From IMG/VR virus record IMGVR_UViG_3300005573_000001: 64,000 nucleotides of DNA, one strand, 5' to 3'. The notes below the pieces were generated by a model that saw only the letters and a list, made by a program, of their open reading frames with translations, did not search any database and was not told the DNA's origin. This document shows, one piece after another, positions 3,329-57,113 of this stretch. Made by a program: the position numbers and the translations under genes. The number at the start of each line of letters is the position of its first letter. Position 1 is the stretch's first letter. Source of the stretch: a virus.

Positions 3329-4006
3329 ATGGCAACATTAGCATACCAGTTAGCCATGGAATACTTCAACAAGATAAAGTGGTTCTGCAAGGATAGGGGC
3401 GCAGTAGTCGCGGCAGCTGCCAGGTCATATGAAAACCTTATTAAGGAACTTAAGTATGCAGACCTCTTCGAGGCACTTAACTTCTTTAGTCTGACTCGGG
3501 GTACATGGCAGCTCAATGCAGTCCAAGACCCAAGTGAAACTGTCCTCACTCCAGCCGACAACCTTATAGACAAGGGGACGTTTTACTTCCATCCCGTACT
3601 ACAAATCGCCCCACCTGCACCGATATGGTACCCGGACGGACCCCAAATCGAGCAGGAGCCATTTTATCTAACCAACGTAGAAGTATTTACAATGGGGCAT
3701 CTGGTAACCTACTTTAGCGAGAGGACAAACCAGATGCTCACACCCTTGGCTAACAACGCCTATAGTAAGACATTACGTTATATATTCGGGAGAATACCTA
3801 ATCTGCGACAGCCGCTTAATAAGCTGGACGCCGTATTATATACGATAGACGAAGCGGTTACGCAGACATATGATAAAGGGGATAAGCCCATAAGAGAGGT
3901 CATCGAGCTTGTCAACTACATCCCAGACGGCATCGAAATATATGAGGCAAGATATAACTCCAGCGTCGAATATGGGCTCGACAAGCCCATCCTCCCTACG
4001 CGTTGA
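3329..4006 (+). CDS. hypothetical protein
   Basis: 225-aa ORF with AAGGAG RBS in the replication operon. Confidence 0.6.
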   Translation: MATLAYQLAMEYFNKIKWFCKDRGAVVAAAARSYENLIKELKYADLFEALNFFSLTRGTWQLNAVQDPSETVLTPADNLIDKGTFYFHPVLQIAPPAPIWYPDGPQIEQEPFYLTNVEVFTMGHLVTYFSERTNQMLTPLANNAYSKTLRYIFGRIPNLRQPLNKLDAVLYTIDEAVTQTYDKGDKPIREVIELVNYIPDGIEIYEARYNSSVEYGLDKPILPTR

Positions 4007-5000
4007 ATATGGTGCGAGAATAGACTCAGGCTTCATTCGTAATATATTCTGCACTCCAGACCAGGAAGACAATTTCAGGAGGCGGTACAATAACACGGAC
4101 GTATACCAGTCCGCGTTCCTATATGACAGCAGAGATATAGATGAGGCCAGCCTCGTTGGAGATGCATACTTTGACTTTGATACGGAACTCAACAACGAAG
4201 AAGCTTTCAGTAAAGTACGCCAGGATGCCCTGTCGTCTCTAATGGCGCTAAAGATATGGTATGGCATACCTACAGATATGGTACACATATATTTTAGCGG
4301 ATGCAAGGGTATCCACATTACTGTGCCGCAAGTCATATTCGACATACAACCGGATAGGGAGCTTCACCTAAAATACAAGGAGCTAGCTACAAAGCTATCC
4401 GCAAGATGCAAGTATAAGACACTTGACCTAAAAATATACGACAGGCGCAGACTATTCAGATTAACTAACAGTATACATAGGAAGACCGGGCTATATAAAA
4501 TCCCCATAACGTACGAGGAACTACAAGGGCTTAGCTACGCACAAATACTAGAGCTAGCCAAGTCCCCCAGATCAATCACATACACTACACCCAGGACCAT
4601 ACGTCTTGCGGTCCTAGGACTTAAGCAGTTAAACTCATTGCGAAGAGTACCCCGCAAGATCAAGGCTGACTTTTCCCAGTATAAGGGCAAAGAATTCTGG
4701 CCGCCATGCATCACATATATGCTTGAACAGCCTGTTACAATAGGGTCGCGTAATAATATAGGCTGTGTCATAGCCGCTTATATGTATCATCACGGCTATA
4801 CGGAGGAGGAAACAAAGGACATAATTATTACATGGGGCAATACGGTATGTATGCCACAATTATCTCAGGAAGAGATAGAAAGCATATTGGTATCTATGCG
4901 TAAGGGTGGATATAACTACGGATGCGAAACAATAAAGAGTTTATGTCCCTGCGCATGCAAGGATAAAGAATGTGGAATGAAGAGGAACAGCAAGGTATGA
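3909..5000 (+). CDS. archaeo-eukaryotic primase (AEP/PrimPol) with C-terminal PriCT/Cys-rich domain; start uncertain (possibly 3972)
   Basis: DFD motif I, FSGCKGIH motif II, DLKIYDRRRLFRL motif III; C-terminal PPCI...GSRNN...YGC..CPC. Confidence 0.85.
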   Translation: MSTTSQTASKYMRQDITPASNMGSTSPSSLRVEYGARIDSGFIRNIFCTPDQEDNFRRRYNNTDVYQSAFLYDSRDIDEASLVGDAYFDFDTELNNEEAFSKVRQDALSSLMALKIWYGIPTDMVHIYFSGCKGIHITVPQVIFDIQPDRELHLKYKELATKLSARCKYKTLDLKIYDRRRLFRLTNSIHRKTGLYKIPITYEELQGLSYAQILELAKSPRSITYTTPRTIRLAVLGLKQLNSLRRVPRKIKADFSQYKGKEFWPPCITYMLEQPVTIGSRNNIGCVIAAYMYHHGYTEEETKDIIITWGNTVCMPQLSQEEIESILVSMRKGGYNYGCETIKSLCPCACKDKECGMKRNSKV

Positions 5001-5179
5001 AAGAAACAAACGAATGGTCACTTGAGGTAGCACTAAACCAATGGAAAGGTGAGATAGGTCGAGAGTTCGAAAAGGTATGCCCTACAGCAGCGTCATTTAA
5101 AGCAGTGCTACATACGCTGCACGATATATTCGATAAGATAGAGAGAGACATCCTGCAACACTATAAGAGAATAGACTAA
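4997..5179 (+). CDS. small hypothetical protein
   Basis: ATG overlaps the primase stop codon (ATGA). Confidence 0.5.
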   Translation: MKETNEWSLEVALNQWKGEIGREFEKVCPTAASFKAVLHTLHDIFDKIERDILQHYKRID

Positions 5180-5191
5180 TGGGGTCAATAC

Positions 5192-6262
5192 ATGAATGTT
5201 AGAGAAAGACTGTTTGGAAGCAGCAATAGTGAGGCGAGCACATTAAGTGAATTACAACTTAGTATAGACAGAAGTAATCTAGTCGACATTGAGAATGAAT
5301 TCCTAGACGAAATAGAGGCCTTCGACACCCAAAGTAATGAGCGTAGCTTAGGAATAGACACTGGGTTCCCTAAGCTAAACGAAGCGCTCAACGGCCTCGA
5401 GGCAGGGCTCATAATGGTCAGCGGACCAGCCAATACCGGTAAGACGGCTTTCTGTTTACAGTTAGCGTGGCAAATAGCCAACCTTAACCGCGACAGTACG
5501 CCAGAACACCCGTTCAGAGTATATGTCCTATATTTCTCGCTCGACGATGCAACAAGGGACGTAATCCCACGATTCGTAGCAATAGAAGAACATATGGACA
5601 TAAGGATAGTAAAGACCCCACACCGTCACGCACATTCTATATCTGACCTTATTAGAAGGGCGACAGGTATCCGTAAACTAAAGCAGAGCCTGAATGTCAT
5701 TAAGGTAGTAGATAAGGGTAAGGGCTGCAGCATAGAATACATTACTGGAGAAGTCGAGCGACATATGTTCGATCTACAGAACATGGAATCAAGGGACAAT
5801 GTCCGGTACAAACTCGTCGTTTTTATAGACAACTTCCACGATATAGAAGTAGAGTCCCAACGTTATAACGACGAAAACCGCCGCTACAACGATATATGTG
5901 CAGCGCTAGACACCTTAGCAATTAGGTTCGACCTACCGATCATCTGCACAGCAGAATTACGCAAACTTAACGGTTTAAGGCGGCCTACTAACGATGATAT
6001 ACGCGAGACGGTAAAGATGAGCTATAAGGCTAAGGCCATCCTATCATGCTATAACGAGGTAGGAATAAGAGACCAGAACGCAAGTATATACTGGACACAC
6101 CCAGAGAGGCAAGAGAAAATGCCAGTACTAGAGGTCAGGTTTACCAAGAATAAGATGAGTAGCTATAAGGGAAGGCTGTTCTTCAAGTTCATACCTGAAC
6201 AATCGAGACTTATAGAGGCTGACACAATGGAGGCACAAAGATATGCACAAGCAAGCCAATAG
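5192..6262 (+). CDS. DnaB-like replicative helicase (C-terminal ATPase domain)
   Basis: IDTGFPKLN, Walker A GPANTGKT, YFSLD, VFIDN, KNK motifs. Confidence 0.85.
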   Translation: MNVRERLFGSSNSEASTLSELQLSIDRSNLVDIENEFLDEIEAFDTQSNERSLGIDTGFPKLNEALNGLEAGLIMVSGPANTGKTAFCLQLAWQIANLNRDSTPEHPFRVYVLYFSLDDATRDVIPRFVAIEEHMDIRIVKTPHRHAHSISDLIRRATGIRKLKQSLNVIKVVDKGKGCSIEYITGEVERHMFDLQNMESRDNVRYKLVVFIDNFHDIEVESQRYNDENRRYNDICAALDTLAIRFDLPIICTAELRKLNGLRRPTNDDIRETVKMSYKAKAILSCYNEVGIRDQNASIYWTHPERQEKMPVLEVRFTKNKMSSYKGRLFFKFIPEQSRLIEADTMEAQRYAQASQ

Positions 6263-6276
6263 AAAGTGGAGACTAT

Positions 6277-7650
6277 ATGATAACAAAGGTACTGGACACA
6301 AACATTCTCCTCGACCGCCCATTCGAGGAGACACTTAAACTACTATCTGAGAAACACGACAACATTAAAGTCGTAGTCCCCCTCTCGGTACTAGTAGAGC
6401 TAGACACCTTCAAGAATGGCAGCAACCCAATCAATGCAAACTGCCGGTCCACTATCAGGTTTATAGAAACCCTGCGCCACCTTGGGGTAACTAAAGGACA
6501 AAACCTTGTAGACGGTGTAATCTTCGGTAATATAAGGTTCTGTGTACACATAGACACAGGAAACCTGGACGAGACGAAGGTAGACAACCTCGTAATCAAG
6601 ACGGCGAGAGAACTATCCGAGTATGAGAATGACGTGGAGATACTCTCTGAAGACATACACGAGCGCATCCTTGCCAATATATGTGGCATCACGTCAAATA
6701 GTCTAGCCAGTAAAGACATCAACATCGATAAGCTTTACACAGGTAAAGCAGAAATACAGATAACCGAGAATCAGCTCGAAGAGCTGTACAAAGACAGAAA
6801 TAGCAGGCAGCTTAGGACTAGACGAGAACTAGAGTATAACCAGTTCGTAATCATGACGGATCCGACCGGACAAGTCCACTACGGTATATACGATAAGGAG
6901 TTCCACGTAATAAGGGGACTCAAGGATACATACGAAGCATGGGGCATTAAGCCCAAACGTGGCAAGGATGGACGGTCCATTAGAGAACAGACAATGCTGA
7001 TGCACCTATTGCTTGACAAGAATATAAACCTAGTCACGTGTGTAGGTCCATCTGGCAGTGGAAAGACATTTCTAGCGCTTGCAGCGGCGCTTGAACAGAC
7101 TATATATAAGGAAATCTACGATAAGATAGTAGTCATCAGGCCGCTTGTACATAATGACATAGGTGCTCTGCCCGGTGATAAGCTGGATAAATTACGACCG
7201 TGGATGGGGTCGGTGTTCGATAACCTCGAGTATCTTCTATCAATAGAAGGTACAAGCGCAAAGTTGAAGGACCTAACAGGTTACGGAAGCACTATAGACC
7301 GCATTAACGACCTAATCCAGAACGACATAATCGAACTAGAGGCATTCAGCTTCATACGCGGCAGGAGTATACCAAACCAGTTTATTATAGTTGACGATTG
7401 TCAGAACATGTCTGTATCACAAGCAGTAACTATTCTGACACGCGTAGGGGAAGGTAGTAAGATAGTCTTACTAGGGGACATTGCCAAACAACAAATAGAC
7501 GACCCAAGGCTATCCCCAAGCAACAATGGACTTACATACATCGTAGACAAAACTAAGGGTATAAGCCCATTAGTCGGCCATATAACAATGGAACAGGTAG
7601 TAAGGTCCCCGTTAGCAGAATTAGTAGTAAAGATAAGTAGCATGGAGTAG
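6277..7650 (+). CDS. phoH: PIN-PhoH family protein (PhoH2/YlaK-like)
   Basis: N-terminal VLDTNILL PIN domain; GPSGSGKT, GALPG, IRGRSI, TRVGEGSKIVLLGD. Confidence 0.92.
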   Translation: MITKVLDTNILLDRPFEETLKLLSEKHDNIKVVVPLSVLVELDTFKNGSNPINANCRSTIRFIETLRHLGVTKGQNLVDGVIFGNIRFCVHIDTGNLDETKVDNLVIKTARELSEYENDVEILSEDIHERILANICGITSNSLASKDINIDKLYTGKAEIQITENQLEELYKDRNSRQLRTRRELEYNQFVIMTDPTGQVHYGIYDKEFHVIRGLKDTYEAWGIKPKRGKDGRSIREQTMLMHLLLDKNINLVTCVGPSGSGKTFLALAAALEQTIYKEIYDKIVVIRPLVHNDIGALPGDKLDKLRPWMGSVFDNLEYLLSIEGTSAKLKDLTGYGSTIDRINDLIQNDIIELEAFSFIRGRSIPNQFIIVDDCQNMSVSQAVTILTRVGEGSKIVLLGDIAKQQIDDPRLSPSNNGLTYIVDKTKGISPLVGHITMEQVVRSPLAELVVKISSME

Positions 7651-7689
7651 CACCTAGGAGAGTACTATTAACAAGGATTGATGAACAGC

Positions 7690-7884
7690 ATGGCTCAGTG
7701 GATTCAGAAGGCTATAAAGAGGCCTGGAGCCTTATCAGCAAAGGCAAAGAGAATAAAGGGAGGCTACAAGAACGGGCGTATCACACCAAAAGGACTCGCA
7801 GCCCTAGCTAAGTCCAAAAACCCGACAACCCGTAGGCAAGCGGCCTTAGCCCGTACACTTGCAAAGCTTAGAAAGAAGAAGTAA
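7690..7884 (+). CDS. small highly basic protein (putative nucleic-acid binding)
   Basis: WIQKAIKRPGAL...RRQAALARTLAKLRKKK with no acidic residues. Confidence 0.7.
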   Translation: MAQWIQKAIKRPGALSAKAKRIKGGYKNGRITPKGLAALAKSKNPTTRRQAALARTLAKLRKKK

Positions 7885-8099
7885 TGATGGATAATATCAT
7901 AGCTCGCGGTTATAAGGCCATGTTTGGAGCCGCAAGGTACTGCCATCTATGTGGCAGACAACTCATAATAGGAGACGACGACGGACACGGCAACGCAGTA
8001 ACACCTGAGGAATTCCAAGCAGAGATGCACAGTGTCTGCTTACGCAACGAGTTAGTCAGACGTAAGGCCTTAAAGAGCAACAATGAGAGTAGACATTAG
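7884..8099 (+). CDS. small putative Zn-binding protein
   Basis: CHLCG...HSVC; translationally coupled. Confidence 0.5.
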   Translation: MMDNIIARGYKAMFGAARYCHLCGRQLIIGDDDGHGNAVTPEEFQAEMHSVCLRNELVRRKALKSNNESRH

Positions 8100-8859
8100 T
8101 GACATATTAATCTACATGGACTGCCCCGTTAAGTACCTAATCAAACAGCGAACGGCTGAGTCCAAAGCATGTAGCATAAATAGGGAGTTTGACGAGGCCA
8201 TACATAAGGTTCTATTATACTATTACTACAAGAAGATGAATGGCCAGGAAGTCGGCATCACAGCCATGAAAAGGAGATGGGGAGAACTATGGTATACGCC
8301 AGGAACTCCCAATGATTATGCACTGCGAGAGAACAGGTATAGGGACAAAAGAAGGCAGCTTGAGCTATATGGAGTAATGCTAATAGACGCATTCTACAAT
8401 AACGAAGGGCATACCGGGGCAGTCCCCTTAATTGTAAACGCACAAAGTCAGGTCCAAGTTGGCAAGCACGTCGTAACTGTAAATATAGAGCTCGTACGTC
8501 GAGCCAAAGATAAAAAGGTAGAGTTAGTTGACTTTCGCATAGGAACCGTATACCCAAAGAACATCGTCGTAAACAGAGACCTCTCTCTCTCAGCACAAGC
8601 CAAAGCATTCCGCACAACATTCGACATGGAAGAGGACCGCATAATATTGTCGTATATGCACCAAGCTGGGATGGGAGCACACGACTTTACCGTAAGAAGA
8701 ACAGAAGAACACATAAGAAAGTTTGAATGCATCGCCGAGATGGCGATTACAGGAATAGAGAACGAAGTGTTCTATCCTCGATACAGTAAAGATTGTTATA
8801 CCTGTTTGTATCAGGGGATGTGCAACGCAATTAGATTTAAGAAGGTGAAAAAATGTTAG
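8083..8859 (+). CDS. PD-(D/E)XK nuclease-fold protein (Cas4/AddB-like) with atypical active site
   Basis: N-terminal CP.KY, C-terminal CYTCLYQGMC; ELVDFRIG in place of the usual IIDYKTG. Confidence 0.7.
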   Translation: MRVDISDILIYMDCPVKYLIKQRTAESKACSINREFDEAIHKVLLYYYYKKMNGQEVGITAMKRRWGELWYTPGTPNDYALRENRYRDKRRQLELYGVMLIDAFYNNEGHTGAVPLIVNAQSQVQVGKHVVTVNIELVRRAKDKKVELVDFRIGTVYPKNIVVNRDLSLSAQAKAFRTTFDMEEDRIILSYMHQAGMGAHDFTVRRTEEHIRKFECIAEMAITGIENEVFYPRYSKDCYTCLYQGMCNAIRFKKVKKC

Positions 8860-9017
8860 AGTTAGTTAAAGATGGTAAGGTAGTCCTTACTATAGACGAC
8901 CGTGGGAATATGTGTGGAGAGTTACTTGACAATATGAAGGCCAAAGCTGACGAGCTTGCCCAAAAAGGCAAGTTACCAATACCAGATAAGGCCAAGGAGA
9001 AGAAGAATGAAAAATAG
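8853..9017 (+). CDS. small hypothetical protein (54 aa, below the ORF-track cutoff)
   Basis: MLELVKDGKVVLTIDDRGN..., AAGGTG RBS, fills the gap between genes. Confidence 0.5.
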   Translation: MLELVKDGKVVLTIDDRGNMCGELLDNMKAKADELAQKGKLPIPDKAKEKKNEK

Positions 9018-9249
9018 AGAATTAGTACCGAGCAAGGTAGCCGTCATTTATGACACCTATAATCCTCAGGAAGTCCTGGACATCGTGCCGGTCGAGGTCT
9101 TTAGCTCACTAGGAATAGGCGATACAATTATAATAAGGAGCTTTGGGGCTGACAATAAACTAATTGAAATATACAAGAACATTGCAGACAAACAAATAAT
9201 CCTTAACCACACATTAGGGTCTATAGACTACAACATTATTGCCGGATAA
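9007..9249 (+). CDS. hypothetical protein
   Basis: ATG at 9007 with AAGGAG upstream. Confidence 0.55.
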   Translation: MKNRELVPSKVAVIYDTYNPQEVLDIVPVEVFSSLGIGDTIIIRSFGADNKLIEIYKNIADKQIILNHTLGSIDYNIIAG

Positions 9250-9264
9250 TAGGAGAGATACTAA

Positions 9265-11283
9265 ATGGCATACCCAGTACTAAATAACTGGAGTGCTGTT
9301 CAGAGCGCGCCCCCTATCAGTAAGAATGACCTTATACAGATACAGTACGCTGTCGACGAGTATAGGGCTAAATTCAAACATAGGGATATGACGCCGTTCG
9401 CGTGGCACTTCAAGGGTAATAAACTACAAGGATGGGAAGGTTGCGACATAGTTGGCTCATGTGTAAGGCCAACTGATGTCATGGTTAGCCCAGTACTTGT
9501 AACTGGCGACGACATAGGATGTACTATTACGTGTAATGCAGACGTATACAAGTACTTTAGCATGATGGTTACAGTCGAAGGACACGAGGACGCAGAGGCG
9601 ACACTATCATACTACAGCGACGAAGAGACGGTAGCAGGGTCCGTAAGTCTAATTTGCCCAGCAGGCGGACCATACATAATAGCGCACGACCTATCTAGTG
9701 AGGCAAACTATACCGGTACAATATATCAAATAACCCTAAGCTTCTCCTGCAATGTTCTAATCCAATATGTCAAGATAGACAGTATACAAACAATCTATAT
9801 CGACGAGAGAAGAGTTGTGGAGGCACAATACTTCAATACTATCCTTAATGGCGTAGAAGAAGTATCTAATCCTCCGAGAGCTCCAACCACACAAAGAACC
9901 AACAAGATTGACCTTAGAACAAACTTAGCTAAAGTAGGAAAGCCAACAAGCAAGAAAAAGCTCAGAAACCTGCTTACAGCACTAGAAAACATATATCAGT
10001 CGGCATACAACGGGTGTGCGGCGTGCGATATAAATACCCAAACCTGTACAGTAGCTTACGGCATGGTTGGTTGTGCGACCTGTAATACATGCAACGGATA
10101 TACAGCTTGTAGCTGCGACATGAGTTGCTATGAGGAAAGCGTACGGTGCAGGTGCGAACCAGCGAGTTATGGTGTCCATTGTACATGCAACCAGACGGCA
10201 CACACGGCATGCACCTGTAATACCACACAGTACAGTACGGGCTATGGAGCCGAGGTAACAGCGACATGGGAAGCCACATGCACATATACATACCGTGACA
10301 GACAGAATGCCAGCACGTATGGGTGGCGTGGCGACCCCGAAGATAATTACGAAGGGTGGCACCCATGGATATATCACGGGGCCTTCAGAGACGAGGACGT
10401 AAATCCTATATATCCTGACTACGGATTACATCGAGGGTTTATATTCTTCGATACAGCCAACATCAGAGCCACGCTAGCCGGAGCACAAATCCTAAAGGTA
10501 AGACTATACATAAAACGGGCAGCTACTCCACACGGACAAGTCAATGGCGGGCGCGTAAAGTTCAATCTGCACAACTATGGTCCCGATATATACGAAACCC
10601 CGTTACCAGACATCAGAACGTACCAACCACCAAGTAAGTACTTTGCTAACCCGACGGAACTGTTAAAGTACGGGCCACAAGTAATGCCTAACACGGGGTG
10701 GTTTGCCACCAACGGCAGCGGATATATAGCCGGCACCGATACTCCAGACGGCAGCATATATACGACGTGGCCGCGCGGCACAGCAAGGTGGATAGTCCTA
10801 CCGCTATGGTACGGCACTAAGATAAGAGACGGAGAGGCGCAAGGCATTGTTTTGCATACCAACATTACAGAGGAAGACACTGGCATAGACAATGTAAAGC
10901 GCACGCGCAGCTATAACTACAACAAGAGCTACATGTACTTCTGCAGCTCGCCAATGTCTGCGGGAGCAAAGAAACATTGGCCCAGCTATGTCAAGTGGTG
11001 GGAGCCAGCCAAATTAGAGATTACATACAAACCCCTACTGTGTGGCTGTTATACAAGCAAATATAACCAGTGCCTATGTAATATGGCCAAATACGGGTAC
11101 TCCTGTACATGCGATGGAACAGATATCGCAAGCAGGGTCTGTACATGTAACCAAGCAGCATACGGAGCAACGCCATGCTCAGTATGTGACATAACTAACG
11201 ACGGCTATAGTGCGTGCACGTGCAATATAGGCTGTTACGAGGATACGTGCAGGGATTGTCACAACACTGGATACCATACATAA
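9265..11283 (+). CDS. Cys-rich repeat protein, probably virion/tail-associated; candidate radical SAM substrate
   Basis: Two blocks of 15 Cys each, built of CxC-x4-Y/H units, flank a beta-rich domain (HRGFIFFD..IRATLAGAQILKVRLYIKR). Confidence 0.6.
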   Translation: MAYPVLNNWSAVQSAPPISKNDLIQIQYAVDEYRAKFKHRDMTPFAWHFKGNKLQGWEGCDIVGSCVRPTDVMVSPVLVTGDDIGCTITCNADVYKYFSMMVTVEGHEDAEATLSYYSDEETVAGSVSLICPAGGPYIIAHDLSSEANYTGTIYQITLSFSCNVLIQYVKIDSIQTIYIDERRVVEAQYFNTILNGVEEVSNPPRAPTTQRTNKIDLRTNLAKVGKPTSKKKLRNLLTALENIYQSAYNGCAACDINTQTCTVAYGMVGCATCNTCNGYTACSCDMSCYEESVRCRCEPASYGVHCTCNQTAHTACTCNTTQYSTGYGAEVTATWEATCTYTYRDRQNASTYGWRGDPEDNYEGWHPWIYHGAFRDEDVNPIYPDYGLHRGFIFFDTANIRATLAGAQILKVRLYIKRAATPHGQVNGGRVKFNLHNYGPDIYETPLPDIRTYQPPSKYFANPTELLKYGPQVMPNTGWFATNGSGYIAGTDTPDGSIYTTWPRGTARWIVLPLWYGTKIRDGEAQGIVLHTNITEEDTGIDNVKRTRSYNYNKSYMYFCSSPMSAGAKKHWPSYVKWWEPAKLEITYKPLLCGCYTSKYNQCLCNMAKYGYSCTCDGTDIASRVCTCNQAAYGATPCSVCDITNDGYSACTCNIGCYEDTCRDCHNTGYHT

Positions 11284-11291
11284 GAGAGACA

Positions 11292-12518
11292 ATGGACATT
11301 CGTAACAATCAGGCATTAGACGCGGCCGAAACCTTCCCAGTTACATCAATAACGCTAGAGCTTACGAAGAGATGTCCCCTAGCGTGCGACTACTGTTTTA
11401 GTCATTGTTTCAACAAAGAAACCAACCAGACAGACCTATCCCCTGAAATGGGAAAGAAGGCCATAGACTGGCTGTTCGATCCAAAGACTAACGGTAACGC
11501 CACTTCAGTCGATATAAGCTTCTGGGGTGGCGAACCGTTAGTTAAGTGGGACTTACTAAAGGAGCTTGTACTCTATGCAGAAGGCAAATCCAAAGATTCG
11601 GGCATAGGAGTAACATTCGGCGGGACTACTAACGGTGTACTCCTAACACCAGACAAGTTTGATTTCCTGGATCAACATAGTATATTTTTCCTCCTTTCAA
11701 TAGACGGTACCCGCGAACATCACGATGCCTTTAGGAGGTTCCCGAATGGCAGCGGGTCATGGGACATTATTATGCGTAATGCAGAACAAGTCCTAGCCCG
11801 CTGGCCATTCTATAAAGTAAGATTATCATTCACAGTAGAGCACATAGAAGGCCTGCTTGAAGACATCAAGTGTCTCTACGACAATGGATTTAGAGAAATT
11901 ATATATTCTCCAGTATCGGAAGGGAATTGGACGCACGAAAAGTTGGACACGCTGAAGAGCGTCTTCCATAACATTGCACAATGGTATATGGAGACTAAGA
12001 TAAACGGCAAGCCAATTAGTATTAAATATATAGACGACGGGTGCAACCAGTTAGTCAGACCTATGGGAGAACAAGCTCCATGCGGAGCCGGAAGGGGGTA
12101 CGTAGGGATAGCCGTAGACGGGAGTATCGCACCATGCCACCGATTCCATAAAGTAGACGACATTCGTCCATGGTATGAAAAGGAGACCTGCTTAGGGCAC
12201 ATAGAGTACGGTATACTTAACCACAGCCTAAGGAATCAGTTCACAAGGTGGAAACCAGAGAACGTAATGTGCAGCAGGTGCGGGGCATTTAAGGTATCAT
12301 GTACCGGAGGCTGCTGGGCCAGTAACTATGACATAAACGGAGACATATGCAAACCAACTGAGCCGCTTTGCACAGTATCACAGGTAAACCTAGAGGTTGC
12401 CAAAGCGATACGAGAGACAGAGAGAGAATACTACAAGGCAATAAGCTGCAACCACAACGACATCACGGCATACCTAAGCAAACAGCTCGACATAATAAGA
12501 CAGACCTTAGGAGACTAA
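11292..12518 (+). CDS. radical SAM/SPASM domain protein (anSME/peptide-maturase type)
   Basis: CPLACDYC, FWGGEPL, TTNG, SIDG; SPASM cysteines CGAG..PCHRF..CSRC..CTGGC..C. Confidence 0.93.
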   Translation: MDIRNNQALDAAETFPVTSITLELTKRCPLACDYCFSHCFNKETNQTDLSPEMGKKAIDWLFDPKTNGNATSVDISFWGGEPLVKWDLLKELVLYAEGKSKDSGIGVTFGGTTNGVLLTPDKFDFLDQHSIFFLLSIDGTREHHDAFRRFPNGSGSWDIIMRNAEQVLARWPFYKVRLSFTVEHIEGLLEDIKCLYDNGFREIIYSPVSEGNWTHEKLDTLKSVFHNIAQWYMETKINGKPISIKYIDDGCNQLVRPMGEQAPCGAGRGYVGIAVDGSIAPCHRFHKVDDIRPWYEKETCLGHIEYGILNHSLRNQFTRWKPENVMCSRCGAFKVSCTGGCWASNYDINGDICKPTEPLCTVSQVNLEVAKAIRETEREYYKAISCNHNDITAYLSKQLDIIRQTLGD

Positions 12519-12519
12519 A

Positions 12520-12873
12520 GTGGAAGACGTACTACAATTCATGGTCATAGAAGCTGTAGAAGACGGGACAGTCATTATAGTACGCATACTATTTACTGAG
12601 GCATCGCTCATACTACTAAGCAGAATGTGCGCAGTAGACGAGGACATAATTGAGGACGTAGAGAAGGCGATATTGGAAGATGACGAGGCTAGGAAGAATC
12701 TAACCGAAGAAGACAAGGACGACATAATTTGTCTAGCCGAGCTCACGGGCATAATAAGCAACTTCATAAAACAGTACATATGCAGCGATGCTAATGCAAT
12801 AGCTATACGCCCAACCAGTAACGAGTACGGCAATGAGTTCGAGGCCATAATTTCAATCAAGAAAGAGAGTTAA
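12520..12873 (+). CDS. acidic hypothetical protein
   Basis: GTG start with AGGAG RBS directly after the rSAM gene. Confidence 0.55.
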   Translation: MEDVLQFMVIEAVEDGTVIIVRILFTEASLILLSRMCAVDEDIIEDVEKAILEDDEARKNLTEEDKDDIICLAELTGIISNFIKQYICSDANAIAIRPTSNEYGNEFEAIISIKKES

Positions 12874-13017
12874 GTACCGTGGGACCTTACCTGTTAGGCT
12901 ACAGGCAAGAAGACAGTTAGGGAGGACAATAATACTGGAGCTATACACAAAGCATGTAAAGCAACAGACGCGCTAGCCACCGCATACATACACTTACCTA
13001 AAGGGGAGCAAGTCTAG

Positions 13018-13275
13018 ATGCTAATAACAAGGAACAACATAAGTGTAGAAATCAGTTTAGAGGAGCTTAAAGAAATTACTAGTTCCGAACAACTAATACA
13101 GTTTATCTTAGAGATTACGGCAGTGCCGGGACAAAACGAGCTGCCAGTAATCCAAAAATCCCCCAAGATGACACCCACCAATAAATATAACATCCTCGAC
13201 AGCGCTATTACCGACATAATCAAGGATAACATCAGGAAAGACTATGGAAGATCAGAAAACAATATCGCCGAGTGA
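13018..13275 (+). CDS. hypothetical protein
   Basis: ORF with GGGGAG RBS. Confidence 0.5.
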   Translation: MLITRNNISVEISLEELKEITSSEQLIQFILEITAVPGQNELPVIQKSPKMTPTNKYNILDSAITDIIKDNIRKDYGRSENNIAE

Positions 13276-14059
13276 CTACGAGGAAATCGACAAGTTAGTC
13301 CTAAGGTACCAAAGCGGCGACAGCAAGGCAGCGGAAAGGCTCATAGTGGTTTTCGAACCGCTTATAAAAAAGTACTACTCTATCATAAGAACCGAGTGTA
13401 TAAGTTATAACGACTGGGATACACGACGCTTCCTGCGCCTATTCTGTCCCAGTAAAGAAATAAGGAAGCGCTTCCTACACAAGCCCTTCATGATGCGCTA
13501 CAAACAATACATTGAGGCCGCACTTACGGCGCTACATAGAATGTGCGATCCATTACCCAGCGAAGATATAAGACAAGAGTTAATCACACAGCTCTTAGAA
13601 ATAGCCCATAAATACAAGCCACCAGAGAATAAAAGATCATCATTCTGTAACTACCTAGAAATTTCGTACCCATTCTATATTTACAGAGCCATAATGAAAC
13701 TCACGAGAGAACCGTGCGCCTATAACACAGAACATTCAGTGTCGTACGACGCATACAGGTACATAATCGAGAAGACGTCGGTATACAGAATGGAAGACTC
13801 ATGTATAAACAGTTTACTATGTAACCAAGCTCTAAAGATGTTAGACCCTATACAAAAATACATACTAGATATGTATTATAATCAAGGATTAAATGATACA
13901 AGCATTAGTAAAATTATGGGATATAGCCGACAGTATATACATAGGATAAGACAAGAGGCTGAAAACATTATAGCAGCTCAATTAGGACCGGAGTATAAAA
14001 GAATTTTAACGGCTAAGAGTAAGAGACATACGAAAGATGCCAAAGATCACACACTGTAA
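13244..14059 (+). CDS. phage sigma70-family sigma factor
   Basis: LVLRYQSGDSKAAERLI, EDIRQE..FCNY (region 2); C-terminal HTH ISKIMGYSRQYIHRIR (region 4). Confidence 0.8.
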   Translation: MEDQKTISPSDYEEIDKLVLRYQSGDSKAAERLIVVFEPLIKKYYSIIRTECISYNDWDTRRFLRLFCPSKEIRKRFLHKPFMMRYKQYIEAALTALHRMCDPLPSEDIRQELITQLLEIAHKYKPPENKRSSFCNYLEISYPFYIYRAIMKLTREPCAYNTEHSVSYDAYRYIIEKTSVYRMEDSCINSLLCNQALKMLDPIQKYILDMYYNQGLNDTSISKIMGYSRQYIHRIRQEAENIIAAQLGPEYKRILTAKSKRHTKDAKDHTL

Positions 14060-14537
14060 GGGATGCGGTAAAGAGATTTCATATCAGACTAAGCCACCGC
14101 AGTATTGTGCAGAATGTAAGACAAAGACTACAACCAAACATAAAAAGGGACCGTTCAAATGGAAAAAAGAGGCCCACCTGTTTCATATCCTAGGAGAACT
14201 ATGCAAGAACTACGAGTGCATATACAATGGGTATTACTCGTGGCTTGTGTCTCCTAAGGGAGAACCTATGCAGCTAGACTGGTATTGTCCTGAGCTAAAA
14301 GTAGCGGTCGAACTACAAGGAAGGCAACATTACGAATATTCAAACTATTTTCACAAAAGCAAGCGAGCATTTAGGTATCTACAGGAATGTGACGCACTAA
14401 AGGTAGTGCAGTGTACAGAACACGGGGTCAAACTAATTATAGTAAAGTACGACAACACAATAACCAAAGAGTACATGCTAACCAAACTAAGGGAACAAAT
14501 CCCAGACATAGAGAAAGTAATAGGTCTTGACCAGTAA
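14037..14537 (+). CDS. Zn-ribbon plus Vsr/DUF559-like endonuclease
   Basis: CKGCG..YCAEC; LDWYCPELKVAVELQGRQHY. Confidence 0.75.
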   Translation: MPKITHCKGCGKEISYQTKPPQYCAECKTKTTTKHKKGPFKWKKEAHLFHILGELCKNYECIYNGYYSWLVSPKGEPMQLDWYCPELKVAVELQGRQHYEYSNYFHKSKRAFRYLQECDALKVVQCTEHGVKLIIVKYDNTITKEYMLTKLREQIPDIEKVIGLDQ

Positions 14538-14555
14538 CTACAACTACAGTATAAT
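14527..14555 (+). promoter_or_regulatory. SigA-type promoter upstream of the Cas4-like gene
   Basis: TTGACC-17 bp-TATAAT. Confidence 0.7.
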
Positions 14556-14565
14556 AGGAGATAAG

Positions 14566-15336
14566 ATGACATTTACAGACGCACTTTATGAAGCAATAAT
14601 TGCCGAGAATATAGAGGATGCGAGTAAACACACAGAGCCTCACATTTACCCGAGTAGCATAGGGTCCTGCTCACGTAAAATAGCCTATGAAGTATTAGGG
14701 TACAAGGGAGAGGATGAAGAGCCTATTGCCTTAATGCGAATGAAAAACGGCACCTACTTCCATGAACGCGTAGAAGCCCTAATTAAGAGGACAGACATAT
14801 ACATAGCTAACGAATACAGGGTAGTCAACGCAAGTAAAAAAATATCAGGGCGGAGCGACCTATTAATTAAAAACATTTACCCGCATAAGCCATCTAATAA
14901 TATTATCAAGCTATATAGGGCCACAGAAACAGAGGAAGAGCCCGAGGTATTATACGAAGGACCAGACAATGATATAATGATCGTAGAGCTGAAGAGCATA
15001 AAGTCCAAGAAATACGCGCAACTACTAAGAGATAATAGTCCTAAGAAAGAGCATGAAATGCAGCTGCAATTGTACATGGAAGAGACGGGTATCAAAGCGG
15101 GACTAATAGTATACGAGAACAAGGATACCCAAGCCATGAAAGAGTTCATTGTAAACTATGACCCCGATATAGTAGCGGCCGTCAATACACAAATAAATCT
15201 AGTATGCGAACATATAGATAGAGGGGAGCTACCACCAAGAGAATACAGCCAATCAGACGGAGAATGCTTCTGGTGTAAGTATAAGCAATACTGTTGGAAA
15301 GACGAAGACGCTCTAGATCTACATAAGCTCTTCTAG
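14566..15336 (+). CDS. Cas4-like PD-(D/E)XK exonuclease (Fe-S type), not CRISPR-associated
   Basis: PSSIGSCSR, GTYFHE, GRSD, ELKS, QLQLY, CFWCKYKQYC. Confidence 0.85.
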   Translation: MTFTDALYEAIIAENIEDASKHTEPHIYPSSIGSCSRKIAYEVLGYKGEDEEPIALMRMKNGTYFHERVEALIKRTDIYIANEYRVVNASKKISGRSDLLIKNIYPHKPSNNIIKLYRATETEEEPEVLYEGPDNDIMIVELKSIKSKKYAQLLRDNSPKKEHEMQLQLYMEETGIKAGLIVYENKDTQAMKEFIVNYDPDIVAAVNTQINLVCEHIDRGELPPREYSQSDGECFWCKYKQYCWKDEDALDLHKLF

Positions 15337-15868: not shown

Positions 15869-18532
15869 CTAGGAATTATATTTACGAATCAACTTGCGCA
15901 TAACGCCATAAGTAAGCTTAGAGACAGTATCGCGCTCCTTATCACTGCGCTCTACTACCAAATCGGCATACTCTTGCTTCTTATAGAGGACACGACGTAT
16001 CCTATCGTCGACACCGTCATGAGCAAGTAAGTTAATTATAGTAACAGATGCATGAGTACTAGTAAGCCTATGTATTCTAGCTACACGCTGAGCCCAGACA
16101 GCCGGATTCCAAGGCAGATCCATATTAATTAGGGCCGAAGCAACTTCTAAATTTAAACCATAGTTACCGGCGTCCGTACTGACAAAGAACATAACCTGAG
16201 AATCATTCCTAAAGCGATCCAAGAGAGCTTGGCGGTCCTTAGAAGGTACAGAACCGTTAAGAATAACAGAAGCACCAAACTTCTCAGTAACTTGCAGGAC
16301 AAGGGCCTGGAAGCGAGCAAACTCAGTAAAAATAGCTATCTTGGAGTGGCCAGCACGCACAAGATCACGAATTATCTGTTCAAGCTCAACAAGCTTCGGG
16401 GCACGCTCGGTATAATCGATAGCATACCTCCTAGCCAAGCCAGCATCAGACATAGACAGGAGGTCTGGGGAATCACAGACTTCCTGTAACAGAGAAAACA
16501 TAGCGTGCATGCGGTCCTCATAGGGATCAGACGCATCTAACACATCGGAATCAGGAGTCGGCCTCGGCTTACGCATAAGCTCGTAGAGGTCGTTACTAAT
16601 ACGAGTATGCAGGGCCGCCTGCTGTGGCGTCATCTGAACTCGATAATCATTAACAACTATTTCAGGCAACTGAGGAGCTACATCCTTCTTAAGCCTGCGC
16701 ATAATATAAGGAGAGAGCTCCTGATTCAGGGCAGCCAAATTACGGTATCCTACTACCATACGAGGACGACCGTACTTTACGCCAAAGCATATAAACTTCT
16801 TGCAGAAGTCAGACCAGCGGCCTAGTATAGCAGGGTTAATGAAGGCAAAGATACTGAATATCTCATCTGGACAATTCTGCAATGGAGTACCAGTCATACA
16901 AACTTTGTAGGGTGCATTCAGTCGCCTAAGAACGGCACTAGTCTTAGACTCCCAAGAGCTTATTCGGTGAGCCTCATCAAGAACAACAAAGTCAAAGTCT
17001 AACTCTAAGAGTGTGTCAATGTCAATCCGAGCAAGCTCATAGTTGATAATCGTAAAGAGAGGAGACCTTTGACGAATATCCTCATAAAGAATCGCACGCT
17101 TACGCGGAGGCCCATCAATAACAACAGGCGTGATACGATCAGTCAGAAACTTATAAAGCTCGGCTTCCCACTGATACTTAAGAGAAGCCGGACATACGAT
17201 AAGGCTCTTCTTAATACGAGCATCGCGGTACAAGCGCCATATAGCATAGGTAGCCTGAACGGTATTGTGCGTTAGAATACAATGCTCCGTTACATAGAGT
17301 TTGTCGGGAGCTTCGACGGCTATACAAACAGCTTCAGCCATACGCACATACTGAACAGACTGAAAGACACGATAAGGACGAACCGGAACGTATCTGGAAA
17401 GACGAGCAGGAGTCCTAAAAGGCATAAGCCAGCTGGGAAAATACATAGAGACACGGTACCTACGACCGCGGGACGTAACAGAAGCAGAACCACCTAGGTT
17501 CTCTACTAAAGCTTGAACGCTATTAGCTAAAGACTCGAATAACGTAAAGAAGCATACATCAGAACGGCGAGAAGAGATTAGACCACCCGTATCAAGGAGT
17601 CCTTGTAGCAAGTCAACACGGTCCTGAACGGAAGCCTCTAGATAAATTTGGGGGATAAAGGGACTGGTAGGACCAAGACCGAGACATAAAGTACGCAACC
17701 GAGTCAACTCAGGGTAATCAGGCAAGGTAGCAAGCGCAGTATCATCAGGGACCATAGCAATTAGAGCTAAGTAGCGTCCTACAGTATAGGGATCCACAGG
17801 CAAAGCAACCCGATTAAAGCGTATAGGACCGGTAAGCATAGGACAATAGAGGGCTGTCCGCGACAAGTCAAGCAAGGTACCATCCGCAGCGCGTACTTTA
17901 GGCAGCGTCATCAGTTGAGCAGTAGTTACCGTAAGAGTAGCCCACGTATTACCGACCCTATAACGCACAGTCCACAAGTGCTGAAGCCCGGCTTCGACGG
18001 AGGAACCGTCAGACAAAGTAACACGATAAATAGGCTTAATACCTTGTGGATATATACCGATAACTTTCGTAGGCATTCCATCAGAACCAATGACATAATC
18101 ACCAACCTGAAGAGACGAGATGGGGGCCCAGCCAGTTGGAGTACATACTAGAGTATCGACAGGATGCTCCTTACCGAGCCCCATCTCATCAGCCAGCATA
18201 CACTGCTTCACATTATAAATAAAATCAGCTCCTACTATCTGGAAAGGGTAAGGGCGCAAAGCAAAGTCATCAATGTAGTCTATAGGTACGTCGCCAGAAG
18301 GGGTATACAAGGCTATAGGAAGGTCCATAGGAACCTCTGCCCAAAGCAACTTAGTAATGCGAGACAGAGAACAAACTTGGTCGTAAGCGGACCTTGGAAC
18401 GTTCCAAAGGCGATTGATATACTGACGCCCGGGAATAGCTCGGATAACACTAAGAACAGAGTTAAAAGATTCAGAACTCTCGTTAAGTATCGAGAGCTGA
18501 ATCTTATCATTATAAAGGGTAGCTATAACCAT
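15869..18532 (-). CDS. SNF2-family helicase containing an intein
   Basis: LADEMGLGK|TVQ, DEAH, TGTPLQN, QRVARIHR motifs. Confidence 0.92.
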   Translation of the reverse strand: MVIATLYNDKIQLSILNESSESFNSVLSVIRAIPGRQYINRLWNVPRSAYDQVCSLSRITKLLWAEVPMDLPIALYTPSGDVPIDYIDDFALRPYPFQIVGADFIYNVKQCMLADEMGLGKEHPVDTLVCTPTGWAPISSLQVGDYVIGSDGMPTKVIGIYPQGIKPIYRVTLSDGSSVEAGLQHLWTVRYRVGNTWATLTVTTAQLMTLPKVRAADGTLLDLSRTALYCPMLTGPIRFNRVALPVDPYTVGRYLALIAMVPDDTALATLPDYPELTRLRTLCLGLGPTSPFIPQIYLEASVQDRVDLLQGLLDTGGLISSRRSDVCFFTLFESLANSVQALVENLGGSASVTSRGRRYRVSMYFPSWLMPFRTPARLSRYVPVRPYRVFQSVQYVRMAEAVCIAVEAPDKLYVTEHCILTHNTVQATYAIWRLYRDARIKKSLIVCPASLKYQWEAELYKFLTDRITPVVIDGPPRKRAILYEDIRQRSPLFTIINYELARIDIDTLLELDFDFVVLDEAHRISSWESKTSAVLRRLNAPYKVCMTGTPLQNCPDEIFSIFAFINPAILGRWSDFCKKFICFGVKYGRPRMVVGYRNLAALNQELSPYIMRRLKKDVAPQLPEIVVNDYRVQMTPQQAALHTRISNDLYELMRKPRPTPDSDVLDASDPYEDRMHAMFSLLQEVCDSPDLLSMSDAGLARRYAIDYTERAPKLVELEQIIRDLVRAGHSKIAIFTEFARFQALVLQVTEKFGASVILNGSVPSKDRQALLDRFRNDSQVMFFVSTDAGNYGLNLEVASALINMDLPWNPAVWAQRVARIHRLTSTHASVTIINLLAHDGVDDRIRRVLYKKQEYADLVVERSDKERDTVSKLTYGVMRKLIRKYNS
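17264..18169 (-). mobile_element. class 3-type intein (302 aa) in the SNF2 Walker A motif
   Basis: Starts EHPVDTLVCTPTGW, HLW in block B, VCIAV in block F, ends LTHN|T; LLQGLLDTGG LAGLIDADG remnant. Confidence 0.88.
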
Positions 18533-30966: not shown

Positions 30967-31420
30967 AATCTTTACCTCGTACATAAATTGTTTGGTTAGA
31001 AGTAGCCAAAGTTACGCCATACATCTGATACCCAGAGACAGCTAGCTCTGGCTCATAACGGCCACTCTTAATATAATCAAAGAGTAACTTGATAGAATCA
31101 GGAATTTCATCAATGGGATACCGGGTGAAAAGCCAGAAGGGACAAGAAGTCAAAGAGCGAAGGGCAGTAACCAAGTCTACCAACTGAGAGGAATCATTGT
31201 CTAAAGGCTCACCACCCAGTATCCACAAAGATTTTATAATAGGTACACTAGTCAGCTTACTAGCTATACTGGTCAAGCAGGTATACCAAGGTTGACCAAC
31301 ATTAAAGTCCCAAAGGTCAGGATTATGGCAGCCACGACACTTAGGCTGTGCATTGCATCCTGATAAGTAAATCTCAAAGGAACTAGTAGCAAGACTAAAC
31401 TGCGTCGCTGCAACATTCAT
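30953..31420 (-). CDS. nrdG: anaerobic ribonucleotide reductase activase
   Basis: GCNAQPKCRGCHNP, ILGGEPLD, TSNQ; adjacent to nrdD. Confidence 0.9.
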   Translation of the reverse strand: MNVAATQFSLATSSFEIYLSGCNAQPKCRGCHNPDLWDFNVGQPWYTCLTSIASKLTSVPIIKSLWILGGEPLDNDSSQLVDLVTALRSLTSCPFWLFTRYPIDEIPDSIKLLFDYIKSGRYEPELAVSGYQMYGVTLATSNQTIYVRGKDYGIT

Positions 31421-35315: not shown

Positions 35316-35355
35316 AATGTCACTCCATCTGATTTGAAAGTTATACGAAACCAGC

Positions 35356-57073: not shown

Positions 57074-57113
57074 ATATATTCTCCATAAGCGCACATACTA
57101 AGAGCGTTAAGTA

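Follow-up and report, generated by a model that had tools for sequence, protein, structure and literature searches.

A candidate thioether-stapling cassette in phage DNA: a large Cys-repeat protein encoded next to a radical SAM/SPASM enzyme

RESULTS AND DISCUSSION

Organization of the locus

The window analysed here, a 64,000-nucleotide stretch of DNA from a large phage of anaerobes (IMG/VR record IMGVR_UViG_3300005573_000001), carries two adjacent genes, encoding a Cys-repeat protein (P0001) and a radical SAM/SPASM enzyme (P0002). Their features are as follows.

9265-11283, + strand: gene of P0001, the Cys-repeat protein, 672 aa (open reading frame and translation)
9322-9798, + strand: N-domain, a conserved helix (aa 20-36) and a predicted CBM-like beta jelly roll (aa 40-178); family-defining
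10009-10230, + strand: Cys block 1, aa 249-322, 15 Cys; an N-cap starting N-G-C-x-x-C-D followed by shortened C-x-C units
10237-11034, + strand: central domain, a predicted CBM-like jelly roll, aa 325-590, 266 aa (VIA-align, sequence and BFVD matches)
11041-11280, + strand: Cys block 2, aa 593-672, 15 Cys; C-x-C units and a C-cap ending C-x-x-C-H-x-x-x-Y
11284-11291, + strand: intergenic spacer, 8 nt, holding a GAGAG string that resembles a ribosome site
11292-12518, + strand: gene of P0002, the radical SAM/SPASM enzyme, 408 aa (Pfam, NCBIfam, CteB alignment)
11373-11396, + strand: C-x3-C-x2-C motif (C28, C32, C35) for the SAM-cleaving [4Fe-4S] cluster (translation)
12081-12371, + strand: SPASM region for two auxiliary clusters, with seven Cys (C264, C282, C327, C330, C337, C341, C360)

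The translation of P0001 contains 38 Cys in its 672 residues and agrees with the initial annotation, which had described an open reading frame of this length with two 15-Cys blocks; each block holds exactly 15. All eight C-x-C-x4-(Y/H) units quoted there were found, with a ninth C-x-C at residue 614 in addition. The proposed internal repeat corresponds to two similar 14-residue stretches at aa 278-291 and 647-660, and the beta-rich insert put at about 265 residues is the 266-aa segment 325-590, which is beta-rich in the structure model. The reported 8-nt gap is also correct, the TAA stop codon of P0001 occupying 11281-11283 and the ATG of P0002 starting at 11292. This ATG is the right start since homologues open with the same residues. 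No terminator-like site was found on the plus strand between the two genes, and a promoter and terminator scan gave nothing above shuffled expectation.

P0001 has no match in Pfam, NCBIfam or PHROG. A PDB sequence search gave nothing and a word-index protein search returned only the protein itself. INPHARED phages gave no match by blastn of the locus or tblastn of P0001, nor did IMG/VR when searched with single proteins. An exhaustive phmmer search yielded 38 homologues, and a family profile detected one IMG/VR locus and four metagenome loci; none were found in GTDB genomes with this profile.

Cys blocks and repeat unit

From first to last Cys, block 1 extends from Cys251 to Cys318 (10015-10218) and block 2 from Cys593 to Cys665 (11041-11259). 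Cys makes up 15 of 72 residues (21%) in block 1 and 15 of 80 (19%) in block 2, as compared to 1.5% in P0001 outside both blocks and 1.67% in the 25 other genes of the window. Against the window background the enrichment has a binomial P of about 1e-12 for block 1 and 5e-12 for block 2. Furthermore, 15 diverged family members, whose identity to P0001 is 25-34%, all keep the same 11 Cys positions in block 1.

The repeat unit can be written as C-x-C-[ND]-x-x-C-[YH]-x-[EQ] and is 10-13 residues long. Across the family it comprises 13 residues with three Cys; in P0001 several units measure only 10-11 residues, the third Cys being lost. Among 46 thirteen-residue units, position 4 is Asn or Asp in 87% and position 10 is Glu or Gln in 80%. 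Both positions lie three residues C-terminal of a Cys, giving each unit two Cys-x-x-acceptor motifs. Position 8 is Tyr, His or Phe in 41 of the 46 units, with Glu/Gln at +2. Family proteins carry from about 3 to about 40 units. At the DNA level Tandem Repeats Finder detected no repetition across 9200-12600, which marks the repeats of the protein as old and diverged. The counterpart of block 2 in related phages is a separate small gene, and the same C-cap occurs in L003 (1236-1742), L007 (9477-10142) and L029 (9584-10345) as well as in P0003, P0004, P0014 and P0020. The 'shorter' word-index protein search with block 2 gave no match.

The composition of the blocks would also suit metal-binding modules (Zn clusters or Fe-S), in which case the radical SAM enzyme would act elsewhere or on few residues. 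Metallothionein-type and CXC zinc-cluster domains typically contain C-x-C motifs. Strings of the form C-x-x-C, C-x2-C-x2-C-x5-C and C-x-x-C-H occur in the caps; the first and last of these weaken a thioether reading since they fit Zn or Fe-S binding as well, and invariant Cys could serve as ligands just as well as crosslink donors. Metal binding has been suggested even for the modified form of the archaeal protein CrpA by the authors describing it (PMC13692751). AlphaFold2 left the Cys blocks unfolded, with a pLDDT of 32-47 that supports neither side, so the thioether and metal readings are structurally indistinguishable. We nevertheless regard metal binding as an unlikely explanation of the blocks. 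No metal domain of Pfam or NCBIfam matches P0001, and metal binding does not predict the conserved N/D and E/Q at +3 from Cys or the Y/H/F position. It also leaves unexplained why the units co-occur with one radical SAM clade across different phage backbones, and so wide a spread of copy number, about 3 to about 40, would be uncommon in a defined metal centre.

Globular domains

Both globular domains of P0001 adopt a carbohydrate-binding-module fold according to the structure models, with no sequence family match. The N-domain is predicted with a pLDDT of 85-92 across aa 90-175, and its aa 40-178 align to CBM6/8/29/35 modules with VIA-align Z scores of 9-10. Residues D31, A35, K36, F49, G51, Q55 and W57 are invariant in this domain among 15 sequences. 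For the central domain (aa 325-589) Z scores of 12.3 and 11.1 were obtained with a chondroitin-sulfate CBM and an alginate CBM, respectively.

The central domain is shared with known tail proteins. Its BFVD matches are tail fibre and minor tail proteins, and the proteins that match it in sequence (P0016-P0039) carry fn3, Ig_J_second, Peptidase_S74 and Prophage_tail domains. The regions of P0001 matched in tail-type proteins are aa 332-447 and 497-537, and the relatives of the central domain sit at the ends of tail proteins.

The radical SAM/SPASM enzyme

As judged from its sequence, P0002 is a full three-cluster radical SAM/SPASM enzyme that is nearest to the thioether-forming maturases PapB, CteB/SCIFF and QhpD, in agreement with the earlier assignment as a radical SAM/SPASM maturase. 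The Pfam Radical_SAM model (PF04055) matched with 48.4 bits (1.5e-12; cut-off 29.5) and the Pfam SPASM model with 17.7 bits, below its cut-off of 21.5. The seven-Cys SPASM motif C-x9-15-G-x4-C ... C-x2-C-x5-6-C-x3-C ... C is present. In 36 homologues C28, C32 and C35 are nearly invariant, the seven SPASM Cys are invariant or nearly so, and G277 is conserved. The best scores with curated families were 228.7 bits for PapB (NF047865; 1.1e-67, model positions 2-330 of 330; cut-off 340), 190.8 bits for the SCIFF maturase ScfB/CteB (TIGR03974; 3.8e-56, model positions 92-449; cut-off 425) and 187.1 bits for QhpD (4.5e-55; cut-off 453). The CrpC-type model TIGR04463 gave 55.8 bits (cut-off 525). P0002 thus misses all curated NCBIfam cut-offs. 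The closest solved structure is that of CteB (5wgg; 1.5e-42), aligned over CteB residues 96 through 449. An RRE (peptide-recognition) domain is absent from P0002.

Assignment as an anaerobic sulfatase-maturating enzyme (TIGR03942) was rejected at 70.9 bits against a cut-off of 349. A PADLOC match to viperin over aa 20-143 reflects the generic radical-SAM core and was likewise rejected as a family assignment.

The low family scores bear on the type of bond that may be formed. SPASM enzymes of similar sequence catalyse diverse reactions, and since P0002 falls below every equivalog cut-off the enzyme might modify the units by another chemistry, such as sactionine (alpha-carbon) thioethers or three-residue cyclophanes between the Tyr/His at position 8 and Glu/Gln. 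An aromatic-x-x pattern is characteristic of triceptide motifs, and position 8 with its Glu/Gln at +2 is triceptide-like. We hold such chemistry to be quite unlikely, because the sactisynthase RumMC (91.7 bits) and the cyclophane formers (FxsB 55, YhhB 68 bits) score far lower with P0002 than the 187-229 bits of PapB, SCIFF and QhpD, and because Cys and not the aromatic residue is the invariant feature of the unit.

Conservation of the gene pair

Conservation of the pairing had been set beforehand as a refutation test for the initial annotation. The pair of a P0001-type gene and the radical SAM gene was found in 10 of 10 related loci of the clade with enough DNA to tell (the window, L001, L002, L003, L006, L007, L008, L009, L013 and L014), the radical SAM gene lying 0-3 genes downstream of the Cys-repeat gene. 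Two related cultured phages, Moorella phage MTATph1 and Bacillus phage 0305phi8-36, retain the backbone primase-DnaB-PDDEXK-[slot]-RuvC-sigma and lack both genes from this slot. The small open reading frames at 8956-9249, 12520-12873 and 13018-13275 are not conserved in related loci and were therefore not counted as parts of the cassette.

The pairing also recurs on unrelated backbones. In a survey for open reading frames bearing three or more units no further than 8 kb from the radical SAM gene, such a frame was present in 9 of 9 tier-1 loci, in 10 of 17 tier-2 loci, where the radical SAM enzyme is 34-46% identical and the phage backbone is a different one, and in 2 of 65 control loci with other phage radical SAM enzymes. 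The association has a Fisher P of about 6e-12 against the controls, for loci that are not phylogenetically independent. Seven of the 17 tier-2 loci have no unit-bearing frame within the available DNA. Among the unit-bearing proteins of tier 2 are tail-fibre-J-like ones and others that carry C1q or F5/8-type-C domains, and the tier-2 radical SAM genes have capsid, tail-tip and collagen-like genes as neighbours. The two genes are most likely a substrate-enzyme cassette: their association is conserved and specific, and P0002 would act on P0001. The pair turns up in many phages that are unrelated to one another, in some cases on tail fibres, and phages therefore probably use enzymes to harden proteins of this kind.

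A cassette of this kind might instead make no structural protein but a giant RiPP-like precursor, cleaved into small crosslinked peptides that serve as toxin or signal. P0002 is indeed closest to families of peptide maturases, and the cassette is an insertion in a non-structural region. Such a precursor is nonetheless very improbable: the conserved cassette has no protease, transporter or immunity gene, the substrate bears two well-folded CBM-like domains, and the units are embedded in tail-fibre-type proteins of other phages.

The suggested virion or fibre role of P0001 is only partly upheld. Its gene lies in the replication/recombination block of a 0305phi8-36-like backbone, with the PDDEXK nuclease gene on one side and sigma-like genes on the other, and thus, in the gene order of the window, not in the structural module, which speaks against such a role. 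The tail relatives of the central domain and the occurrence of units in tail-fibre-J-like proteins of tier 2 argue for it indirectly, and P0001 probably forms part of a fibre or adhesin, displayed either on the virion or outside the cell. Taken as a whole, the initial interpretation stands with respect to enzyme class and conserved pairing and is partly supported as to the virion.

Proposed maturation and comparison with known systems

We consider it reasonably likely, on the grounds of sequence relationships, that P0002 staples the Cys blocks of P0001 through thioethers to give a modular exposed binding protein. The enzyme would install many intramolecular bridges from Cys sulfur to side-chain carbon in both blocks, with Cys1 to Asn/Asp4 and Cys7 to Glu/Gln10 of each unit as the likely staple sites. 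As P0002 lacks an RRE and no leader is common to the substrates, the target of recognition is probably the repeat units themselves. The product would be synthesised in an anaerobic host, within its reducing cytoplasm, and would consist of two CBM-like jelly rolls with stapled, redox-insensitive segments linking and capping them. We infer the action on P0001, the bond type, the acceptor residues and the virion role from these relationships. A complex prediction of P0002 with block 1 (aa 245-330), three 4Fe-4S clusters and SAM scored 0.00 and is evidence neither way. The sub-cut-off family scores and the missing RRE, a domain used by PapB, CteB, QhpD and CrpC, count against thioether stapling.

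The nearest precedent is the CrpA/CrpC system of Methanococcus voltae, where ranthionine-type thioethers formed by CrpC were shown on CrpA in a C-x-x-Q/D arrangement (PMC13692751, 2026). CrpC is a radical SAM/SPASM enzyme with three [4Fe-4S] clusters acting on a full-size protein with a tandem C-x-x-Q/D motif (PMC13692751). P0001 is likewise a large protein encoded next to the enzyme with a tandem Cys-x-x-acceptor motif, and in both systems the Cys-rich region is predicted with low confidence. The systems differ in that CrpC, a TIGR04463 member, is equipped with an RRE and the N-terminus of CrpA is leader-like, whereas P0002 lacks an RRE. Moreover, CrpA has an archaeal host, a 17-aa unit and no CBM-like domains, as compared to a phage, a 13-aa unit and CBM-like domains.

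Among the peptide systems, the ranthipeptide pair PapB/PapA (freyrasin) comprises the best-scoring family for P0002 and has repeated Cys-x(n)-Asp/Glu thioether staples. However, PapA is a short leader-core peptide with C-x3-D motifs, whereas P0001 has 672 residues, several domains and the motifs C-x-x-[ND] and C-x-x-[EQ]; P0002 is below the PapB cut-off and without RRE. CteB/CteA (SCIFF; PDB 5wgg/5why) provides the closest solved structure, and its SPASM Cys pattern is kept in P0002. Since the alignment begins at CteB residue 96, the N-terminal peptide-binding domain of CteB is missing in P0002, and the SCIFF substrate is a 45-residue peptide as opposed to the 672 residues of P0001. In quinohemoprotein amine dehydrogenase maturation, QhpD forms Cys-Asp and Cys-Glu thioethers on QhpC, a protein subunit and not a natural-product peptide (PMC13692751). 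P0002 resembles this system in its proposed protein substrate and its score of 187 bits, but QhpC, a subunit of a cellular enzyme, is a small protein whose leader binds to an RRE and which carries no more than three or four bridges. Asn as beta-thioether acceptor beside Cys, in a short repeated motif, is used by NxxcB of the streptococcal NxxC RiPP system NxxcB/NxxcA (PMC9389541). The phage unit also contains N-x-x-C; in NxxcA, a short peptide modified by an enzyme of another radical SAM subfamily, the acceptor precedes the donor. We found nothing relevant on phage radical SAM thioether systems in the literature, and no paper describing the pairing in phages.

That radical SAM enzymes staple small antibiotic-like peptides through thioethers is textbook knowledge. 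Stapling of a full-size protein was first shown in 2026, with the archaeal CrpA/CrpC (PMC13692751). The same logic now appears, from sequence comparison, in phages, on proteins with a binding-module fold and in relatives on tail fibres. Compared with the initial annotation, the RRE-less enzyme, the separate gene for block 2 in relatives, the unit-bearing enzyme tails and the CrpA/CrpC precedent are new. If the proposed stapling is correct, it would constitute a new kind of maturation of virion or exposed proteins, yielding non-reducible, heat- and protease-resistant crosslinks from the reducing cytoplasm of an anaerobe, where disulfides cannot form. For protein engineering, a stapling enzyme that needs no leader and recognises a short, portable unit would be attractive, and the stapling would explain a group of Cys-rich phage genes that otherwise have no annotation.

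A more speculative extension, which we regard as possible but rather doubtful, is that stapling of Cys-unit arrays is a widespread, unrecognised maturation of exposed phage proteins carried out by an RRE-less, unit-recognising radical SAM clade. Units on the enzymes' own tails may then serve as an intrinsic primer, offer a docking strand or tie the enzyme covalently to the array, which would make the pathway self-templating and not a leader-guided RiPP route. The tail of a related enzyme was not folded by AlphaFold2, and the presence of units there might mean a binding or metal site instead of a substrate, which weakens the thioether reading. P0002 itself has no C-terminal Cys-unit tail, whereas related enzymes carry 1-3 units at this position.

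Cys-repeat protein and adjacent radical SAM enzyme

The Cys-repeat protein P0001 is encoded directly upstream of the radical SAM/SPASM (rSAM) enzyme P0002, with a spacer of 8 nucleotides between the stop codon and the ATG.

9265-11283, plus strand: P0001, ORF of 672 aa
11292-12518, plus strand: P0002, ORF of 408 aa, radical SAM/SPASM enzyme

The initial annotation had described this arrangement as well as two 15-Cys blocks, several C-x-C units and an internal 14-residue similarity in the 672-aa protein, and all of these were recovered in the translation. Of the 38 cysteines in P0001, 15 occur in aa 251-318 (block 1) and 15 in aa 593-665 (block 2). The Cys content of the blocks is 21% and 19%, compared to 1.5% in the rest of P0001 and 1.67% in 25 other genes of the window. 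P0001 gave no match to any library family searched. When 1.84 billion representatives were searched exhaustively with phmmer, 38 matches of two kinds were returned: P0003-P0015, P0020, P0029 and P0032 have the N-terminal domain and block 1 in common with P0001, and the remaining homologues from P0016 to P0039 match only the central domain (aa 325-590). Fifteen family members with 25-34% identity to P0001 were aligned, and eleven cysteines of block 1 proved invariant.

The repeat unit of the Cys blocks is C-[TS]-C-[ND]-x-x-C-[YH]-x-[EQ]-[PA]-x-x, most commonly spaced by 13 residues. Since position 4 is Asn or Asp in 40/46 and position 10 is Glu or Gln in 37/46 cases, each unit holds two Cys-x-x-acceptor motifs. 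Arrays range from about 3 to about 40 units, and the homologue P0020 contains 111 cysteines. A conserved N-cap starts the arrays and a C-cap finishing with C-x-x-C-H-x-x-x-Y ends them. A small gene of its own encodes the C-cap half in the related loci L003, L007 and L009, located between the genes for the large protein and the enzyme. P0001, P0003, P0004, P0014 and P0020 have both halves fused in one protein, with the central domain additionally inserted between them in P0001 and P0003.

Properties of the enzyme

The C-x3-C-x2-C motif (C28, C32, C35) and all seven SPASM cysteines are present in P0002 and conserved in 36 homologues. The highest family scores all belong to thioether formers: PapB (228.7 bits), the SCIFF maturase (190.8) and QhpD (187.1). 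Scores for sactisynthase, anSME, PqqE and the cyclophane formers were much lower. Every score was under the curated cut-off, so P0002 falls outside all named equivalogs. Its best solved relative is CteB (1.5e-42). Since the alignment starts at CteB residue 96, the N-terminal peptide-recognition domain (RRE) is missing, and this domain was found neither in P0002 nor in any of its close homologues. In L013 (2287-5040) and L014 (9920-12616) a LAGLIDADG intein interrupts the rSAM gene. Its insertion point is precisely the second of the SPASM cysteines, which is a ligand of an auxiliary cluster, and the extein junction is ...Y-P/C...H-N/C-H-R-F (slashes mark the splice points).

Almost all enzymes of the window's own phage clade (tier-1) and of a second group on other phage backbones (tier-2) have a C-terminal extension with 1-3 copies of the substrate-array unit (C-x-C-[NY]-...-Y) followed by a long helix.

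Enzymes with a unit-bearing tail (tier-2 entries are examples)
L003, 1768-3390
L006, 2773-4365
L007, 10169-11803
L008, 5859-7469
L010, 7001-8362 (tier-2)
L012, 7001-8335 (tier-2)

P0002 has lost this tail, and a nine-residue stretch in block 2 of P0001 is identical at 7/9 positions to the middle unit of the related enzymes' tails. In a model of the related enzyme P0041 the tail (aa 395-473) was predicted as poorly as the substrate arrays (pLDDT 35-59). The tail may serve as a cis-substrate or docking strand, or it may form a metal site.

Conservation of the gene pair

An rSAM gene occurs 0-3 genes downstream in every related locus with enough DNA, i.e. the window, L001, L002, L003, L006, L007, L008, L009, L013 and L014. 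L013 and L016 are one contig and were counted once; L004, L005, L015 and L017 end too early downstream and were left out. Presence alone is weak evidence because the whole region is syntenic. Among cultured phages, Moorella phage MTATph1 has the DNA polymerase nearest to that of the window (38.7% identity), and 0305phi8-36-like Bacillus jumbo phages come next. MTATph1 and 0305phi8-36 retain the backbone of the region, with primase, DnaB and PDDEXK/RecB followed by RuvC and a sigma-like gene, and both the Cys-repeat gene and the rSAM gene are missing from the slot and from the whole genome. Due to this joint absence from a retained backbone, the pair behaves as a single cassette.

An enzyme-profile search of IMG/VR yielded 80 loci. 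ORFs with at least 3 matches to a unit pattern were counted in three groups of loci. Such an ORF was present in 9/9 tier-1 loci and in 10/17 tier-2 loci, where the enzymes are 34-46% identical and often lie in structural modules, versus 2/65 loci with other phage rSAMs. The Fisher P value of about 6e-12 (6e-11 without two near-duplicates) overstates the case because the loci are not independent, but the contrast is still large. The counts are lower bounds since small Cys-unit genes are partly missed by gene callers; an uncalled 100-codon ORF with 20 Cys and 4 units, directly upstream of the tier-2 rSAM gene, is found at L012 6685-6984. Unit-bearing tier-2 proteins are central-tail-fibre-J-like in L025 and L027, contain C1q or F5/8-type-C domains in L020 and L028, and in L029 end with the same C-cap as P0001. 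The proposed pairing thus held in phage gene neighbourhoods, being conserved in all informative loci of the clade, with unit ORFs enriched near tier-2 enzymes. Judged from these genomic comparisons, a functional pairing of P0001 and P0002 is well supported.

The pair most similar to that of the window, P0003 with a partial rSAM, lies on a 2.6-kb contig of a 'Candidatus Bathyarchaeota' MAG (L001; NCBI GCA_026014515.1, contig JAOZIG010000074), most likely a mis-binned phage fragment.

Predicted structure of P0001

With 35 sequences as input, AlphaFold2 gave a model that was confident at aa 90-175 and over much of aa 330-590, and both Cys blocks had pLDDT values of 32-47. Structure comparison showed a CBM-like jelly-roll fold for both confident regions. 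Here the central domain matched a chondroitin-sulfate binding module (Z 12.3) and an alginate binding module (Z 11.1), and the N-terminal domain matched CBM6/8/29/35 modules (Z 9-10). Among viral structures, the matches were to tail fibre proteins and minor tail proteins. By sequence, the central domain is related to regions at the N- or C-terminal end of proteins that carry Prophage_tail, Peptidase_S74, fn3 and Ig_J_second domains. For P0001 itself, a virion or fibre role is plausible on indirect evidence.

Proposed mechanism and known systems

By analogy with CteB, PapB and NxxcB (PMC9389541) and with CrpC/CrpA (PMC13692751), a substrate Cys would bind to auxiliary cluster I at its open iron, and the 5'-deoxyadenosyl radical would abstract a hydrogen from the acceptor, three residues off, at a carbon of its side chain. 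A thioether would then form, and the cycle would repeat along the unit array. Protein-level thioether formation is proven for the archaeal enzyme CrpC acting on CrpA (PMC13692751), and similar chemistry by P0002 on P0001 is likely. The lack of both an RRE and a leader common to large and small substrates points to recognition of the repeat unit itself.

This kind of system is already known from QhpD/QhpC and, since 2026, from CrpC/CrpA. In contrast to these, the present pair is phage-borne, the enzyme P0002 is without an RRE, the phage substrates have a new unit family and binding-module or fibre-type domains, and the phage-clade enzymes themselves carry substrate-like units. No description of such a phage rSAM thioether system was found in a literature search.

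Phage, host and other genes

The window is a section of a large phage contig, and the longest of the contigs bearing P0001 has 174,200 bp. The window encodes a primase, DnaB, PhoH, a PDDEXK nuclease, a sigma-like factor, a Cas4-like nuclease, an SNF2 helicase, UvsX, a DNA polymerase and an anaerobic ribonucleotide reductase, and in view of this gene set the host is very likely an anaerobe. A small acid-soluble spore protein gene (Pfam SASP) in the related phage contig L007 (15845-16042) hints at spore-forming Firmicutes as hosts of the clade.

The backbone order primase, DnaB, PDDEXK/RecB, RuvC, sigma-like, Cas4-like is common to the window (3909-15336), MTATph1 (L018) and 0305phi8-36 (L019), although RuvC is missing from this slot in the window, unlike in the two cultured phages. 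Next after the sigma-like gene of the window comes a homing-endonuclease-like gene (14037-14537), and ORF194 has the same place in 0305phi8-36.

Three further minus-strand genes of the window were noted.

15869-18532, minus strand: SNF2 helicase
31395-35393, minus strand: anaerobic ribonucleotide reductase
56387-57094, minus strand: ORF of 235 aa with 21 Cys

The first two are unusually long with split family matches, consistent with inteins. The 235-aa ORF has repeats of s-C-x-F-G-x-x every 7-8 residues or so and resembles a Cys-ladder beta-solenoid; apart from a weak Hexapep match, no family was assigned with confidence. Its repeat type is unlike that of P0001, and it lies 45 kb away from the rSAM gene.
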